64,000 nt of DNA from Podarcis filfolensis. Lineage: Eukaryota. Both the position numbers and the translations under genes were made by a program. Where the stretch lies: assembly GCA_964270895.1 (NCBI GenBank), contig OZ185443.1; one strand, given 5' to 3'. Positions 12,535 through 52,789 of this stretch are shown piece by piece. The first letter of the stretch is position 1. Every line of letters starts with the position of its first letter. The notes under the pieces are model-generated. The model did not search any database, had not been told where the DNA came from, and worked only from the letters and a program-made list of their open reading frames with translations.

Positions 12535-14420
12535 TAATATGGTTCACAGCAACACTTTCACTTGAGTACATCCCTTTATATATTTCAGCTCACATAGTTA
12601 TGAAACAAAGTCAATAGAAGGAATTATGCTTCACATTATGCCAGTAAACTTGATCTAAGTGTCTCACAGGGTTTCCACCTTATATCTTTATCCCAGGTAA
12701 TTGTACTATAGCTCACGCAGAATTTTTTTAAAAAGGAATGACTCCCGTAACAATTACTGTAGTCTTTCTTTACCAAGAGCCCTCTCATGTGGGCAATCTG
12801 CTTTGGCTTCCATTAGTATTTGCTTGTTTGTGTAAAGTAAATGCCGTCTCTTCCTCTAGAACAGGAATAGTTTATCGCTCCCTCCCATAGAGCATGAAAG
12901 GACAAGCTCTATTCTAGGGGGCTGTCCCTGCTATGAACATACCCACTAACCCTGTAACCAACACTATTGAGTCACCTAGTGGCAATTTATAAATATCACA
13001 AGCGCAGCAAGTGCTGGAAGAGAGGAAAAGCTTTGAGCACCCAATCATTTGTTGAAGCAAATGCATGTTTAAACAAACGTTTACACTGCAGCCTAGGTTT
13101 CAATCGCAGGCATGTAATTAAGAATATAGAAATCATTTTGAGTTAAGTTTATTGAGTGCACAACCTTTTGTATTTTATCATATTGTACACCACTTTAGTA
13201 AATTTTGTTTATGAAGTGGTTTATAAATCTAAAAATAAATAAAACAACTAGTACAGTGATTAGATCAACCTATTATCAAGGTAAAGAAAGCAAACTTTTA
13301 GGTACAGAACTATCAAATTTTATGGTGGAAAGAAGTTGCAAAACTTCTCCAATTTAGGAAATTTCCCCTAGATTAATTTTATTCAGTATGAAATAACCTG
13401 TAAATGGGGAGGGGGGGTGAACTCTTACTGCCATCAACAACTGCCCTCACCTGCCCTGCCGCCTTTTGTACAACCACACTAGGGAGTGGCACTGGTTGTC
13501 ATGTTTCCTCCTCCTTGGTCTCAGTGCTGGTCTTGCAGCAGGGAGGTGCATGGGGGGGGCAGAATTGGCTGGCTTCAGCCATCATTGGCTCTGGTTCCAT
13601 TTACTGTCAGTCTTCCTGCCTTCTGCCCTACCAGTTCCAATGAGCATCAGCCACTATGGCCATTTGTAAGGGATGGTGGAAACTGTAGCCCAACCACACA
13701 TGGAAAGCCACAGGTCACCCACCCTGGTGTAAACAAAGTTCCCTGCATAGTTAATCAGTTCAAAGTCCTGGGGATGAAAAATTGGCAGCGTAACAATTCA
13801 TAATTGTAATTAATGGTGGCTGTCTGCATTTTTAAAAATGTTAAAAAACGGTGACTGAAGAAAAAGTGGCCTATATTATCTCCATTAGTTCTTTTGCTAC
13901 ACAATCATCCAGAAATTGTTTCACATATTCTGGTAGGTAGACAGGCAATGCCAGACCTGTTATCAGGAGTAAAAAACTTAATATAAATTATTATTACATA
14001 GCAATACCGCCCAATTAAGGTGGGGAAGCAGATGGCCCCTTCATTAAGAATTAACTTTAAAAAAATCAGTTGTGAAGTAAACAACATAGGGATATATAAG
14101 GGCAACAATGGCTTGTGAATATCAGCAAATACAACTGTATATTTAAGAGAGCAAGTGCAAAATAGTCCCCATGGGGGACTTATATGATGGTGGGGACCTA
14201 CATTCAAATTTCCATATAGCCATACAACTCACTTAGTGGTCATGGACCAGTCACTAATTTTTAGCCTAACCTACATCACAGAGTTGTTGTAAGAATAAAA
14301 AATGTGCATGGATGGTTGGAAAAGGCAGGATAGGAATGAACAAATAGCAGATTTACGAATGTGAAACAAAACAAAACAAAACAAAAATATTCTTGAAAAT
14401 TCTACCCCAGTTGTAATTAA

Positions 14421-15146
14421 ACAGACACAACAGTTGTAATTGACACAACAGACTGGACAGTCCCAGAAGAAGAAGATCTGCTGAGTAACTTTACCAACCT
14501 ACCAGATAAAGAACAAATAAGCATACTCAGTAAACTGACGAAACTACAGGCCAAATTGATCGAAATTCACCAGCAAGGTCAACAAAATGCAGTAGAAACA
14601 ATACACAATCAAACCTCACACCTATCAGCCCTCTCCCCAAAATGCATAGTCAAAAAGAGAGCTACTAATGGAACTTTTAAATGTATAGATGCAGAGCTTC
14701 AAATCCAGCCTCCTTTAAAATATGAAATGACAAGGAAAAACTCCAGTAATGAGACCACAAATTCCTGGCTGAGATATCAAATACTAGCCCCAAACGAAAT
14801 AGGTACCCCTTATTTAAGTACTACAAAGGATTCTAACATTCCCGAACAAAAGATGACCTCCAACAGACCTGACACATTGAACTCAACATCAAACGAGACC
14901 AAAGAAATGGAAGTAAAGACCGAAAACAATCCTACGGTCCATAATAGTCCACCAACCACAGAAATCTCTCAGGAACAAGGAACAGCTAAGGAAGAAAATC
15001 AAGAAAGGGAGGAAATTCTAATTTCCCGCACTTTAAAAAAGAATCTAAAAGATCCACCATTATGTTCCCCACCGAAAGTAGTGACAAATGGCTGTATCGG
15101 CACAAGACAAAATTCCTCGCTGGACTCAATAACAGAATTAGAATGA
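14421..15146 (+). CDS. LINE ORF1, 3' portion (5'-truncated, no start codon)
   Basis: The track ORF 14556-15146 extends upstream without stops to 14421 (DTTDWTVPEEEDLLSNFTNLPDKEQISILSKLTKLQAKL...). It lies inside the TSD-bounded element directly before ORF2 and has the same A-rich strand bias. Confidence 0.75.
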   Translation, partial: TDTTVVIDTTDWTVPEEEDLLSNFTNLPDKEQISILSKLTKLQAKLIEIHQQGQQNAVETIHNQTSHLSALSPKCIVKKRATNGTFKCIDAELQIQPPLKYEMTRKNSSNETTNSWLRYQILAPNEIGTPYLSTTKDSNIPEQKMTSNRPDTLNSTSNETKEMEVKTENNPTVHNSPPTTEISQEQGTAKEENQEREEILISRTLKKNLKDPPLCSPPKVVTNGCIGTRQNSSLDSITELE

Positions 15147-18100
15147 CTAAATGCTGTCAACCAGCCACCAACTCAAAAACGGATTCTACGCTTGCTGTCC
15201 TGGAATATTGCAGGGTGGGGAAACAAAGACGGAGACCCAGACCTAATGAACTTCTTTAAAGATTTTGAATTAATACTTCTACAAGAAACATGGTCAACTA
15301 GAGATATTAAAATCAATGGATTCTCCTCCTATACGAAACCCGCATTGAAAACAAACACGAAGGGCCGGCCGAAAGCAGGGTTCTGTTGTATGATCAAAGA
15401 CAACTTAGGGTTTGAAATCAAGCAGCTAGAAAAATGCTTGCCACTTGCACAAGCCCTACTTTTAACCCAAAAAGAAGATACCTTGCTACTTGTAAATGTC
15501 TATATCCCCCCATCCAAAAACAACAGCAACAGTGAAAATTGGTCACAACTAACCTTTTATATAGAAAATTTGACCGCTAAATACCCAAATGCCTCATTGA
15601 TAATAGCAGGTGATTTTAATGCCAGAGTGGGAACCAACAATGAACAACTATGTAGCAAACTAAATTGGAATACTGACAATGATATCGCACATGCCCTGAA
15701 AATAGGACGATTCTCCAGAGATAGGGTTGTAAACAACGAAGGCTTACGCCTACTTGAATTATGTAACAACTTTAATTTACAGATTGTGAACGGTTCAACA
15801 AAAGGCGATAGAAGCGGGGAGTTTACATACTTCTCCCCCCGAGGATGCAGTGTCATCGACTATATTCTTGTCCCTTATAATATTATAAATTCGATCATGG
15901 ACCTCAAAATCGGAACGCGTACTGAAAGCGACCATCAGCCATTATTGTTGTCTATTAACTTAAAGGATGAAACCAAAATAACCAAGCACAATATTATAGA
16001 ACCCTCTCAATACAAACAAATGACCCAATTAAAATGGTCCCAGGAAATGAGTGCAGTAGTGGGGCAAAAACTTACAGCCAACCTGAGAAAACAAGTATTA
16101 TCCAACTTAAAGACCACTAATTCCTACAGCGATATTCCGAAAATTTATAATGAAATCTTCCAAATGTTCGTAGAACTTAGTACTCCACCTAAAGTTTGGG
16201 TACTTAAACATAGCGCTAGCCCTTGGTTTGACGATGAATGTTTCCAACTAAAAAGAAAACTGCGCCAAACATTTAAAAATAATCGCACTAAATTAGAGCC
16301 CTCTTATCTTGATGAAAAAAGACAATATCATTACATTCTGGCCGAAAAGAAACAGAAATATGCAACCCAAAAATGGCTACAATTACTTGACTCAATTCAG
16401 AGCAAAAATAACAAAGCGTTCTGGAACCTAGTGTACGGAGGATTGAAAGCCGAAAATCAACTAACTCTACCACCAATTGCAGAATCCAAATGGTCCCAAT
16501 ATTTTACATCTGTATTTAACAATCTACACAGTGAACTTAAAGGAAATGAAACCACTAAAAATAAAATCAATAAACTCCAGGAGTGGCCAAGGGTAGAAGA
16601 AGAGGAAATTAGAGAGATAGTTAAAAATTTCAAATCGGGGAAATCTCCTGGGCCAGACGGTCTACCAATAGAATTATTTAAGACCTATATAGATTGGTGG
16701 GCAGAACCCTTAGCTCAATTGTTTACTCTCATAGATAAATATGGGATCATACCTGAGATATGGTTAAGATCAATAATTATCCCAATCTTTAAAAATGGCG
16801 ACCCAAAAGAACCAAGGAATTATAGACCGATAAGCCTATTATCAGTGATAGGGAAAATCTACGCTAAGCACCTTTTATCTAAACTTCTTACCTGGATGAA
16901 AAATCTAAATTTACCAGGGAAAGAACAAATAGGTTTCTCCAAAGGTTGCTCTACATTAGACCACTGCCTTATACTTATGCATTTGGTTGAAAAATATAGA
17001 TCTCAAAGGCAATCTAAGATATTTGCTGCTTTTGTAGATTTTCGTGGTGCATTTGACTCAATTGACCGCCCAAAGCTGTGGAGGAAACTCGCAGAATTAA
17101 AAATTGATCAGCGCTTATTGATCCTAATAAAAAATTTATACTCTTCCAATATCTGTCAAGTCAAACTTAACACCAAAGGTCACCTTTCATCAGACATCCC
17201 AAACTCGAAAGGGGTAAAACAAGGGTGTATTCTTGCCCCCTTCCTATTTAATTTATTTTTATCAGACTTGCCAGATCACCTTCAAAAAATAGAATCACAT
17301 GCCCCTAAACTTAATCAGAAACCAGTTTCTCTGTTATTATACGCAGACGATGCTGTTCTACTATCATTAACGAGCTTGGGTCTGAAACGTCTTATATCTT
17401 CTCTGATCCTTTACTGCGAATGTAACAAGCTCTCTATAAATTACGAGAAGACAAAAATTTTGGTCTTCTCGAATGGTTGGAAATTAGAGAAATGGAAAAT
17501 AAGAGGGCAGGAAATCCAACAAGTGAAAATCTATAGGTATCTGGGAATCTTATTCCAGAGCAATTTAGGGTGGGCAAATCATCGCACAAATGCCATAAAA
17601 CAGGCAAAGTGCACCTCATCAGCAGTTACCCGTTTTTATTATCAGAAAGGCAATCAATTTATTCCTGCGGCCAATCAGATATTCCAAACAAAAGTGCAAT
17701 CCCAGATATTCTATGGAATACCGCTATGGGTCCAAGCATATAATAGTGATTTAAAAAAGATTCACTCCAGCTTTCTGAGACGTATTCTTGGACTCCCAGC
17801 TGTGATCAAATATGAAACAATGTGTGCAGAAATAGGCATACACACAATGGAATATTGGGCCTGGTCCTCCTCAATAAAGTACTGGTTACGCTGCCATTTT
17901 CGCTGCCCTCCATCAAGTCTGCTCGCTGATTTGCTCAAAGACTCCTACAAATCAAGATGGTATCAGTACCTCGAAAAAAAGATTGAATCTTTAGGCATCG
18001 AGCTGGAGCCCCTGTACAATTCTAATGAGCAATACATTTTCCATAATATCCTAACTAGACTAAAGGATGTCGAGAGGCAAAATATTATGGCAGCTGTAAA

Positions 18101-18647
18101 CAAAATTTGTTCGCCCATATTCTATGATTTAAATATCTTAGATAGCAGAGCCAATTACGTCACCAAATTAATAATTCCAGCCCAACGTAGGGCTTTTATG
18201 CTGGCCCGTTTGAATGTTTTTCCCTCAGCATTTGTCAGGGGAAGATATCAAAACATCCCTAGAAACAAGAGATTCTGCAGATGTTTTATGAATGTCCCGG
18301 ACACGGTAGAGCACATTCTCTTTCAGTGCCCATTGTACAGTACGCTCCGTCAACGCGTGCTGTCCCCTCTTTTGGGTGGTCTGGAGCCCCAACAAGGTGA
18401 ATGTGTGGGATTCTGCCTATCCGACGTTGACCAAAGGGTAACGGCGGGGGTAGCCGAGTTTTTGGTAGCAGTCCTCCAAGGAGTAGGTTAACAAGGAAAA
18501 CCACTGATTTTATATGTATATAAATATATATGTATGTAGCCAACTGCTGCCTTTCTGTATATATCTCAAGGCTTTTATATGTTACTTTTTCTTTTATCGT
18601 TTTGTTTGTATAATGCCTAATAAAGGTTTGAATAAGTAAATAAGTAA
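14423..18647 (+). mobile_element. 5'-truncated non-LTR retrotransposon (LINE), RTE-X-like, young copy
   Basis: Contains an ORF1 remnant and an intact APE-RT ORF2. The T-rich 3' UTR has AATAAA (18619-18624) and a (TAAG/TAAA)n tail. A 10-bp TSD GTAATTAAAC lies at 14413-14422 and 18648-18657. The clade call rests on RTE-like RT motifs (GVKQGCILAPFLF, LLYADDAVLL) plus a C-terminal CxC..EH..CP.Y..R knuckle; it is an inference. Confidence 0.9.
15147..18491 (+). CDS. LINE ORF2 polyprotein: apurinic-like endonuclease + reverse transcriptase + C-terminal zinc knuckle
   Basis: Uninterrupted frame of 1114 codons (the track ORF of 1099 aa plus 15 in-frame codons back to the TGA at 15144-15146). APE motifs: SWNIAG, LQETW, NVYIPP, GDFNA, SVIDY, SDHQP. 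RT motifs: RPISLLS, FVDFRGAFDSI, QGCILAP, YADD, YRYLG. Knuckle: FCRC-x8-EHILFQCPLY. Confidence 0.95.
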   Translation, partial: LNAVNQPPTQKRILRLLSWNIAGWGNKDGDPDLMNFFKDFELILLQETWSTRDIKINGFSSYTKPALKTNTKGRPKAGFCCMIKDNLGFEIKQLEKCLPLAQALLLTQKEDTLLLVNVYIPPSKNNSNSENWSQLTFYIENLTAKYPNASLIIAGDFNARVGTNNEQLCSKLNWNTDNDIAHALKIGRFSRDRVVNNEGLRLLELCNNFNLQIVNGSTKGDRSGEFTYFSPRGCSVIDYILVPYNIINSIMDLKIGTRTESDHQPLLLSINLKDETKITKHNIIEPSQYKQMTQLKWSQEMSAVVGQKLTANLRKQVLSNLKTTNSYSDIPKIYNEIFQMFVELSTPPKVWVLKHSASPWFDDECFQLKRKLRQTFKNNRTKLEPSYLDEKRQYHYILAEKKQKYATQKWLQLLDSIQSKNNKAFWNLVYGGLKAENQLTLPPIAESKWSQYFTSVFNNLHSELKGNETTKNKINKLQEWPRVEEEEIREIVKNFKSGKSPGPDGLPIELFKTYIDWWAEPLAQLFTLIDKYGIIPEIWLRSIIIPIFKNGDPKEPRNYRPISLLSVIGKIYAKHLLSKLLTWMKNLNLPGKEQIGFSKGCSTLDHCLILMHLVEKYRSQRQSKIFAAFVDFRGAFDSIDRPKLWRKLAELKIDQRLLILIKNLYSSNICQVKLNTKGHLSSDIPNSKGVKQGCILAPFLFNLFLSDLPDHLQKIESHAPKLNQKPVSLLLYADDAVLLSLTSLGLKRLISSLILYCECNKLSINYEKTKILVFSNGWKLEKWKIRGQEIQQVKIYRYLGILFQSNLGWANHRTNAIKQAKCTSSAVTRFYYQKGNQFIPAANQIFQTKVQSQIFYGIPLWVQAYNSDLKKIHSSFLRRILGLPAVIKYETMCAEIGIHTMEYWAWSSSIKYWLRCHFRCPPSSLLADLLKDSYKSRWYQYLEKKIESLGIELEPLYNSNEQYIFHNILTRLKDVERQNIMAAVNKICSPIFYDLNILDSRANYVTKLIIPAQRRAFMLARLNVFPSAFVRGRYQNIPRNKRFCRCFMNVPDTVEHILFQCPLYSTLRQRVLSPLLGGLEPQQGECVGFCLSDVDQRVTAGVAEFLVAVLQGVG

Positions 18648-19540
18648 GTAATTAAACCAAATGGTCAATCAGCCAAGTGCTAGCACATCTTCAGTTCTAT
18701 AGCCCCACCACCACCCACATTAATTAATAATTCCCAACATTATCTTAATGGTCCTAAGATATGCTTCAGGAGCTACTTTGCCAATGCGTAGATTGATTTC
18801 TGTGCCAGAAAAGCAATGTGGGGAAGTAGACTTTGTTTAGTCTTATCAACTCTTCAGCGTTAAACAAATAACCCTCTCCAGCTTTTCATATCCAACAGCA
18901 TATTATTCAAAGTTCTTTCATGGTCCCTTCCCCTCTCCTGTCTTCAGACGTTTACAGAGCAAGACAGATTAGAAGGGTCTTTATAATTGACCATACACAC
19001 TTGATATAAAAAATAAATGCAGTCACCACCACTAGTTAAAAAGGAGCTTCGTGGAAACAAAAGTGCTGTATTTCAATCTGACAAAGACTGTTTAAATTTG
19101 TGTCAGCATTTCTAGCAGATTTATTCCGAGCCTAGGCTTTGCAGTTTAATATATCAGCCTCATCAAGCACAGAAACTTTGTTTCAGAGGCAATTTGTTTT
19201 AAAGAATTATGGGGAATGAAAGCAATTGGACTGGACTTTTTTCTTTTTCTTTTTCTCTTTTTGATTTCTAGAAATGCTTTATACATTTAAAGAACTGAGA
19301 AAAAGCCTTTCTCACCTCCCCTTTTATCTTTTGCAACAAAGCATGCAACGAGGCTAGTCTCTTAACTGCCATTTAGGAGACTGTGATCCTTAAGCCGCTG
19401 TCACAGTCCTTTCCTGTAGCTCCATGGAATAAAATCTCCACTTCAGTGTCCCAGTGAGCTTGTGGGGGCTTGGCTCTCTCGGAGCTGTTTTGGGGTCACC
19501 AATGTTTCAGCTTCCACACAAAAAAAAAGAAAAAGAAAAA

Positions 19541-50908: not shown

Positions 50909-50950
50909 TATTTATACCCCGCTCTCCCCATCCAAAGCCGGGCTCAGGGC

Positions 50951-51224
50951 ATTTCCGTGCGTTGCTCTGGTTCACCAGAAGCAGCTTAGTCATGCTGGCC
51001 ACATGACCCGGAAGCTGTATGCCGGCTCTCTCGGCCAGTAAAGCAAGATGAGCGCCGAAACCCATTTTATCTACTTGCACTTTGACGTGCTTTCGAACTG
51101 CTAGGTTGGCAGGAGCAGGGCCCGAGCAACAGGAGCTCACCCCATTGTGGGGATTTGAATCGCCGACCTTCTGATCGGCAAGTCCTAGGCTCTGTGGTTT
51201 AACCCACAGCGTCACCCGCATCCC
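50951..51224. mobile_element. Rearranged Sauria SINE (internal inversion, no tail)
   Basis: 50951-51063 is an internal SINE segment in + orientation; 51064-51224 is the SINE head in - orientation. Confidence 0.8.
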
Positions 51225-52789
51225 ATGGTCCTTCAGATAGCCTGGTCCAAAACTGTTATGGGCTTTCAGGTCATCACTAGTACATTGGAATGGCTTCAAA
51301 GCACTCTTAACTTTGACCAGATCTTTCATATGTTCCTTACAAATGCCAATTTAATTGACATTCACACTACAGGATTTTTGTATTTTTGACGCCAAGATTG
51401 TTATCTTCTGAGAAAAGCTATATTTTTATTTTTATTTCTTTTGCGTCCATAAATGTGTTAGGATTCGGTTTCTTCGTTATCAGTGACTGTAGCACAGATA
51501 TCCGCAAACATGCAACTGTGCTCATAAAGAGAAGAAATATTATCCCCAATAAAAGAGAGCTCACCAGCAATTAATTTTCACCAGACATCTTGAGTTACCC
51601 CATCCAATTATGGAAATATATTAATTTTCTTTTCTTAGTGGAACAATGGATTAAGATATAACTTTGACTGATAAAAAGCAATCTTGCTCCTAAATTAATG
51701 TCCCCACTCTCTGTCCATGCCTAAACTATGAGTCTCCCTGTGGAAAGCACAATATTGCCCCTTTGATGAATGAAGCAACATAGTCGATTTATAGGAAGCA
51801 AATGTAATTCAGCAGCTCAGTTCTTTAATTTTGCCTGCAACCTGTACTCAGGCTTTCAAAACGGTATCTTCATGCAGCTGTGTAACTCACAGAATGGGCC
51901 TTCAGAGGAGGCTACTGTGGCTTCATTTTGTAGTAATCTTGTGAGCCTGGGCTGTACAGCCAAGGCAGCTGTCAGATAAATATGGATTACTTTATATTGG
52001 GATCTTTCCTTGAGATCTTTTATAGCCACCAGACAGATACAGCAGTCCCTCAAGTACAGAGCTCAATGCGAAAACATTTCACCTCTAGCCACAAGCTTGA
52101 TGCTGCTGTCGGAAACTGTGTATGCATATGGAAGTCTGCAAATCACCCAGGAGACACCTACAGTATGGATTTTTCAAATTCAGTTGCTACATAGGAATTG
52201 CCTGGGTGATATTTCTACCTTCCACATGCAATATGCAGCTGCTAGCTGGGTGCAAAACTGTTTGATCTTCCCTAGCACTCTATGTCTGCTTCTGCAGCAG
52301 TCAGCTTCCATACCAAACCTCACTATCTCCCATAGCATTGCCTTATATAAGATGAGGGTGCTAGCTGCTGCATAAGAGAAGGGCAAATCCAGATCTTTCA
52401 TGGGTTTTTCTAAGAGACATCTTTAGCATATAGGATGCCTTCTTCTATCCGTGTTCCTCTACTGTCTCCTCTCTCTTCCTGTTCCTAGCTCCTTATTTTC
52501 CAGATTCCACAACTTCTGTAGGGCTGAAGCTCCGTCTCAAACATACTGAAAGACTTTCTTGCCCATTCAGTCACATCTATGCCTACCTGACTATGTTCAA
52601 ACTGAATGGATCCATGAGCAAATAACAGGTCCAACTCAGGTGGTGGAACAAATCTGCATACTCCATTTACCATCAGTTGTACTATTCCTGGACCATCAGG
52701 AACTGTGAAGGAACTGTGACAAGGGTCTTCTATACTTCCACTGGACCTACCCCATGCTTGGAGCCTTGAAGGTGCAAGGATAATTGTCC

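Follow-up and report, generated by a model that had tools for sequence, protein, structure and literature searches.

Type II stop-codon readthrough, as described for Sindbis virus (SINV; UGA-CUA-A), O'nyong-nyong virus (ONNV) and the triatovirus Plautia stali intestine virus (PSIV), takes place at a UGA codon followed by CUA that lies in frame directly upstream of the polymerase open reading frame (ORF); the readthrough of these viruses has been measured and is mostly accompanied by a 3' stem-loop (PMC13517186). The stem-loop is frequent but not obligatory: SINV without it showed 2.0% readthrough in HEK293 cells, PSIV showed 7.9-8.6% with no requirement for structure, and Venezuelan equine encephalitis virus fell to 0.8% without its structure. 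The P-site codon is also reported to shift readthrough efficiency several-fold (PMC9841425); GAA, which precedes the lizard stop, does not occur among the codons covered. The same arrangement is present in a retrotransposon without long terminal repeats (non-LTR), of the long interspersed nuclear element (LINE) type, in the lizard Podarcis filfolensis, where a UGA-CUA separates, in one frame, ORF1 from the enzyme-encoding ORF2. The element lies in a 64,000-nucleotide stretch of contig OZ185443.1 (assembly GCA_964270895.1), hereafter the window; here, unlike in the viruses, the site is known from sequence alone and no structure was found.

Gammaretroviral gag-UAG-pol, for example in Moloney murine leukemia virus (MoMLV), likewise consists of a structural protein, a single in-frame stop and an enzyme, a layout that would set a low enzyme ratio, and the MoMLV fusion is cleaved by the viral protease. 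The MoMLV signal is UAG-G plus a pseudoknot (PMC13517186), whereas the lizard element has UGA-CUA and no protease according to Pfam. Mammalian L1 resembles the lizard element in being a bicistronic LINE with an apurinic/apyrimidinic endonuclease (APE) of matching fold and a reverse transcriptase (RT), and its ORF2 expression can be AUG-independent (PMC11485995). In rat L1, however, a 58-60 nt spacer, two in-frame stops and an ORF2 Met are found (PMC2241872), whereas the lizard junction consists of a single stop with an open linker after it and offers no AUG that could be used. ORF2 of SART1 also begins right at the ORF1 stop (UAAUG), but there the AUG overlapping the stop starts ORF2, with downstream structure affecting the efficiency (PMC5972666, PMC3894237); the overlapping AUG of the lizard element is out of frame. 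Tca2 of Candida albicans, which is an LTR element, shares an in-frame UGA between structural and enzyme ORFs that needs to be bypassed (PMC2194720). Finally, the RTEX (RTE-X) clade combines APE and RT with a full ORF1, which in RTE is rudimentary or absent (PMC3905857). The full-size ORF1 of 546 aa is such an RTEX feature, and RTEX is a putative label for the lizard element; in the portion of the PMC11203168 supplement covered, neither the term RTEX nor labelled RTEX references appear. In its mode of action, the lizard junction would come closest to the type II opal readthrough of alphaviruses, set within a layout resembling gag-pol.

A 2013 review of non-LTR translation (PMC3894237) names, in the part available, stop-start coupling, reinitiation, internal ribosome entry sites (IRESs) and 2A peptides, and not readthrough. 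We found neither a programmed ORF1-ORF2 readthrough in a non-LTR element nor a description of this family in the literature covered, to which subscription papers, bioRxiv supplements and Repbase, which may hold them, mostly did not belong; the accessible parts of PMC13343379, PMC8535693 and PMC5563155 contain nothing on the junction. The nearest finding is that premature stop codons engineered into ORF2 of L1 are read through at a low level (PMC4176336).

The lizard element (14423-18647) lies between two 10-bp target-site duplications (TSDs) and shows the features of an APE-type non-LTR retrotransposon: an APE endonuclease upstream of the RT within ORF2 (Pfam Exo_endo_phos/Exo_endo_phos_2 and RVT_1), the TSD, 5' truncation and a 3' tail with AATAAA and short repeats (Table 1). 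The ORF list confirms what the initial annotation had claimed, namely that two ORFs, each measured from stop to stop (14421-15146, 241 aa; 15147-18491, 1114 aa), adjoin in one frame, separated by the TGA at 15144-15146 (TTA GAA TGA CTA AAT GCT). Two properties of type II readthrough sites are thus found at the junction: a UGA followed by CUA or CGG (here TGA CTA, 15144-15149), and a downstream ORF that is in frame and has no start of its own. The copy in the window is truncated at ORF1 codon 313 of 546 and has no ORF1 start; due to this truncation, it cannot itself make the fusion from the ORF1 start. Twelve of the 14 database ORF1 proteins of the family are 546 aa long, and a full-length fusion would comprise 546 + 1 + 1114 = 1661 aa, not the minimum of 1356 aa given initially, which reflects the 5'-truncated copy. 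Counting both strands, the window has 6738 stop trinucleotides, of which only 28 (0.4%) are followed by the context TGA-CTA; on the sense strand of the element, the junction is the single case among 209. TGA-C accounts for 6.6%. The joint chance of the same frame (1/3), 12 open codons (0.45) and the context is 0.0006 for TGA-CTA and 0.01 for TGA-C; these values are post hoc, with no correction for the large number of LINE junctions that a scan encounters.

The position of the stop is shared throughout the family, named members of which belong to Podarcis muralis and Zootoca vivipara. Thirteen of the 14 distinct database ORF1 proteins end at ...TELE, the same residue as in the window. The 14th, the RefSeq model P0018 (XP_077779110.1), runs on into a fragment resembling RVT_2 (E 7e-7, which falls short of the Pfam cutoff); this joining of ORF1 to a copia-type fragment would represent a nested insertion or an annotation artefact. 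ORF2 of the window is 94-99.6% identical to 14 database models, from which it follows that the family is young. Searches spanning 612-1950 aa and 423-2000 aa, among cluster representatives only, contained no fused ORF1-ORF2 protein, and contigs sized 5824, 5501 and 5533 are common to the ORF1 and ORF2 clusters, which suggests that the same contigs carry ORF1 and ORF2 as separately called ORFs. Both out-of-frame AUGs at the junction (15143 and 15151) are open across the linker, so that a net one-base shift elsewhere in the family would give ORF2 an AUG start and a length of 1112-1115 aa. As no model shows such a start, we infer that the in-frame layout is the family norm, assuming that these AUGs are conserved and preferred by gene callers. 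The only distant ORF1 relative was a truncated 362-aa Zootoca model, and the 22 loci recovered by a scan of genome contigs are LINE-like contigs of prokaryotic assemblies, each of them distant or degraded and uninformative for the junction.

ORF2 lacks a usable start in its own frame. Its first in-frame ATG (15246) encodes Met34, and the near-cognate codons before it are ATT 15183, TTG 15192 (Leu16), CTG 15195 and ATT 15207, and in none of the first three is there a G at +4 or a purine at -3. Among the 14 ORF2 models of the family, six start at Leu16 (written M by the caller), five at Met34 and three further down; none begins before residue 16, so that at the protein level the upstream AUG put forward initially as a refuting case did not show up. 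Built from 72 sequences, an AlphaFold2 model that covers the junction and the endonuclease (mean predicted local distance difference test score, pLDDT, 85) aligns over residues 74-333 with residues 6-238 of the human L1 endonuclease (1vyb_B; Z 24.4, root-mean-square deviation 2.2, 218 aligned); at the sequence level the endonuclease gave only a weak match in PDB (best E 0.08), and its identity was settled by the fold search. In this model, ORF2 residues 12-20 (15180-15206) form strand 1, Met34 lies in helix 1 after it, and N20 is, by its offset in the structural alignment, the equivalent of L1 N14, an active-site residue that, going by this alignment, is presumably required. Initiation at Met34 would delete this first core strand and N20, bearing out the initial claim that AUG initiation truncates the enzyme; initiation at Leu16 would drop half of the strand, and at Ile13 nearly all of it would be kept. 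In the model, residues 12-20 are needed for the endonuclease fold. The first in-frame ATG lies where it had been placed initially; the out-of-frame AUGs at 15143 and 15151 had been overlooked. An overlapping AUG in frame with ORF2, of the SART1/calicivirus type, is absent, the AUG at 15143 being in the -1 frame and closing after 38 codons, and the 2A/StopGo motif D(V/I)ExNPGP is not present at the junction (DSITELE-stop-LNAVNQPP). ORF2 thus needs a non-canonical translation route, and the feature is real and family-wide.

On balance, we favour readthrough of the UGA, at about one to a few percent, as yielding a Gag-Pol-like ORF1-ORF2 fusion that is the main source of intact enzyme. In full-length elements, ribosomes would translate the 546-aa ORF1 and mostly terminate at the UGA; with a frequency of about 1 to a few percent, the UGA in its CUA context would instead be decoded by a near-cognate tRNA, and the resulting 1661-aa ORF1-X-endonuclease-RT fusion would be the chief supply of intact enzyme. 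A low enzyme:ORF1 ratio would thereby be fixed, as in gag-pol, and the ORF1 part could build the fusion into the ORF1 particle on its own RNA, such co-assembly being our inference. Readthrough is the best-supported explanation because it accounts at once for the shared frame, the single stop, the context and the open linker, which stops where the fold begins. Moreover, some leak at UGA-CUA is expected from the context alone. The ORF1 tail is predicted, in low-confidence models, to be unstructured and could serve as a linker. With regard to the coiled coil and the RRM-like RNA-binding domain looked for in ORF1 of an APE-type element, the ORF1 model (mean pLDDT 33) has a long helix at 66-107 and an alpha/beta unit at 159-249, but the fold gave no Foldseek match at E<=0.001, with Atlas leads below 0.9 and a template modelling (TM) score below 0.5. 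Pfam detected no esterase and no other family in ORF1, and no protease in the element.

Several observations weigh against readthrough. The identity of the TGA and the CTA following it are known from one copy, the evidence from other copies consisting of protein ends. No copy or family with a sense codon, and hence fused, was found, unlike in alphaviruses, some of which have Arg for opal. Of the two contexts that had been invoked initially, that of Sindbis virus is indeed present, but the mammalian UGA-CUAG motif, which has G at +7, is incomplete, as +7 is A. The 3' stimulatory stem-loop that had been proposed did not materialize: in single-sequence folding against shuffles, 15147-15300 folds no better than shuffles (z +1.31), and 22 of 24 windows of 40-250 nt gave a positive z (range -1.2 to about +2.5). 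The region 15147-15270 is in fact less stable than shuffles, with z about +2 to +2.45 in 100-120 nt windows compared with +0.7 to +0.9 in four upstream windows, and such unstructured RNA after the stop could favour scanning or reinitiation. Rfam gave no match in the window at gathering score. In addition, no ORF1-ORF2 fusion was detected for rat L1 (PMC2241872), and, as far as the available part of the report goes, the gag-UGA-pol junction of Tca2 on its own showed no readthrough in a yeast reporter (PMC2194720).

The alternative that survives best, which we consider possible but rather unlikely, is an AUG-independent termination-reinitiation 36-48 nt past the stop, at ATT (Ile13), TTG (Leu16) or CTG (Leu17), producing a separate ORF2; the shared frame and the CUA would then be due to chance or a minor leak. 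Translation of L1 ORF2 has been described as AUG-independent (PMC11485995, PMC5009743, PMC5972666), a start at Ile13 would retain nearly all of strand 1, and reinitiation accounts both for the clade-wide lack of an upstream start without a fusion and for the absence of a fused family. However, it predicts neither the shared frame nor the open linker nor the TGA-CTA, for which the joint chance is that given above, and the start contexts are weak. Moreover, TGGGA, motif 1 of the termination upstream ribosome-binding site (TURBS), is absent from 14950-15146, and no SART1-like downstream structure was found at the junction.

Reinitiation at an out-of-frame AUG followed by a frameshift is improbable. 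It could begin at the AUGA overlap at 15143 and then shift by +1, or begin at the AUG of 15151 and then shift by -1 on C AAA AAC (15174-15180), and in either case would enter the ORF2 frame before residue 12. Both AUGs are present and open across the A5 run, and stop-start overlaps drive ORF2 translation in SART1 (PMC5972666, PMC3894237). The M-K-S starts of the related proteins P0071 and P0096, discussed below, are also compatible with AUGA. Yet it would take two rare events, one after the other, the heptamer departs from the canonical XXX YYY Z pattern and lacks a stimulator downstream, the AUGA follows automatically from GAA-TGA, and in 42 relatives whose strand 1 is full, the residue in second place showed, as judged by eye, no clear excess of A-initial codons.

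Quite improbable, too, is that splicing, an internal promoter or internal entry provides an ORF2 start, or that Met34 is used with a crippled endonuclease. A cryptic junction promoter was found in Tca2 (PMC2194720), an IRES-type start has been discussed for non-LTR elements (PMC3894237), and Met34 is present in all 11 family models covering it. On the other hand, strand 1 and N20, which a Met34 start would lose, are both intact in the window and in six family models, the position of the first Met is scattered in related families, the window copy has a clean TSD, and there is no polypyrimidine tract ahead of the CAG at 15159-15164. Lastly, the idea of a single-ORF element in which the stop arose privately by nonsense mutation, a case against readthrough that had been set out initially, can practically be dismissed: the continuity of the frame and the commonness of changes from CGA or TGG to TGA speak for it, but 13 of 14 independent ORF1 proteins from several subfamilies share the end residue, and the protein searches among cluster representatives gave no 1661-aa product.

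The lack of an ORF2 start may extend beyond the family. Relatives were the 150 best matches of a phmmer search against 1.84 billion representatives, and a FastTree RT tree was built from 154 of 163 proteins, nine being left out for not having 280 aa of the region; the tree carries no clade labels. The lacertid family falls in a 25-row clade (Shimodaira-Hasegawa support 95) with members named as Podarcis, Anolis and Rhineura, the Rhineura protein and P0107 having been placed by similarity and not by the tree; 12 clade representatives are 34-48% identical. Other families of the clade include those of UniRef A0A670JKF7, A0A670HKT6, A0A803U059 and A0A803TGL7. Of 14 other families, 13 have a most upstream model that begins between ORF2-equivalent residues 28 and 167 (nine short clade fragments with far-downstream starts were left out), and because these 13 start past the N14-equivalent asparagine, an AUG-less ORF2 across the squamate clade is suggested. 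In one Podarcis family, seven of eight UniRef/NCBI models start at 186, and two other models are open from about 34. That the whole clade has dropped the ORF2 start codon and makes the ORF1 fusion by readthrough is nevertheless a tentative proposal, on the doubtful side of possible. Among the points that weigh against readthrough, the 14th family, that of P0071, has its start at residue 9, and there strand 1 is complete; the contrast between clade and outside proteins is weak: among M-start proteins of at least 900 aa, whose rows are not independent, a complete strand 1 is found in 1 of 12 within the clade vs 45 of 118 outside (Fisher p 0.055). Furthermore, gene-caller error and contig ends contribute to truncated models, and many outside models are truncated too.

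Some other features of the relatives should be mentioned. P0071 and the sister-group protein P0096 begin M-K-S just before the LLSWN motif, which is compatible with an AUGA stop-start. P0093, P0145 and P0155 have a 2A-like ELNPGP or EQNPGP motif before an ORF1-like region that is joined in the gene model to the endonuclease or RT. P0155 (Cordylochernes scorpioides) was considered as a natural fusion among the 150 best matches but was not counted, being possibly a spliced gene model and outside the clade. As to the 22 contig loci (L001-L022), these LINE-type RTs in bacterial assemblies, mostly metagenome-assembled genomes (MAGs) and many with microsatellites, are probably eukaryotic contamination. 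In one of them, from a Chitinophagaceae MAG (L011:951-7013), in-frame ORFs of 739 and 1281 aa are split by a single TAG followed by GGT CCC CCC GGG, which resembles the gammaretroviral UAG-G; an ATG is present just before the endonuclease motif.

Within the window, no second copy of the element was found, and tblastn with every fetched protein gave no further match outside it. The 19 extra bases at its 5' end consist of a repeat of the element's first ten bases and then a flank-matching stretch; such a junction is as expected from template jumping at insertion. The window also contains an interspersed repeat of about 350 bp (SINE-like, that is, of short interspersed nuclear element size) in about eight copies that are 75-94% identical, and three further small repeat families of about 320, 250 and 120 bp, the 250-bp family containing the 16-bp tandem unit GGTTACATACGCTTCA.

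Table 1. Features of the retrotransposon and other repeats, in window coordinates (UTR, untranslated region; AF2, AlphaFold2)
Feature	Position	Strand	Basis
Left TSD GTAATTAAAC	14413..14422	.	Longest flank-shared word, 10 bp
Non-family 5' junction sequence	14423..14441	+	Family alignment starts only at D313
ORF1 3' part, codons 313-546 + TGA	14442..15146	+	Matches 14 ORF1 proteins of the database at 83-97% identity
Junction GAA-TGA-CTA, candidate readthrough site	15141..15149	+	+1..+7 context (UGA CUA A) as in Sindbis virus (PMC13517186 Table 1)
Out-of-frame (-1) ORF, 38 codons, AUG overlapping the stop (AUGA)	15143..15259	+	Sequence
Open in-frame linker, 11 codons, stop to endonuclease fold	15147..15179	+	Sequence, AF2 model, structural alignment
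Out-of-frame (+1) ORF, 31 codons, beginning 4 nt past the stop	15151..15246	+	Crosses A5 run 15175-15179 (C AAA AAC)
APE endonuclease	15180..15959	+	AF2 model and structural alignment to 1vyb_B
Reverse transcriptase domain	16803..17549	+	Pfam RVT_1, residues 553-801, E 1.6e-32
C-terminal Cys/His motif C1044-x-C1046...H1056...C1061	18276..18329	+	Sequence; C/H columns conserved in alignments
3' UTR, AATAAA at 18619-18624, short TAAG/TAAA-type tail	18492..18647	+	Sequence
Right TSD GTAATTAAAC	18648..18657	.	Longest flank-shared word
Copies of the ~350-bp repeat	19542, 39587, 47247, 49125, 50948-51233, 56362, 56704, 59923	both	
Small repeat families	3058, 11426, 20646; 12275, 42357, 45042; 6096, 6255, 8312, 31144		

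How LINEs translate ORF2 is an open question that becomes testable in this family, which is young, belongs to a vertebrate, has intact copies and offers a candidate signal of nine bases. Should readthrough not hold, the data would still indicate a squamate clade lacking a usable ORF2 AUG, and the UniRef and RefSeq annotations of its proteins miss the beginning of the endonuclease. If the clade-wide view is true, this would be a mode of LINE translation that is absent from reviews, as far as the available part of PMC3894237 goes, and a built-in physical route to cis-preference. If readthrough is true, non-LTR elements would converge on the retroviral gag-pol solution, and the ORF1-tethered enzyme would represent a new particle assembly route.

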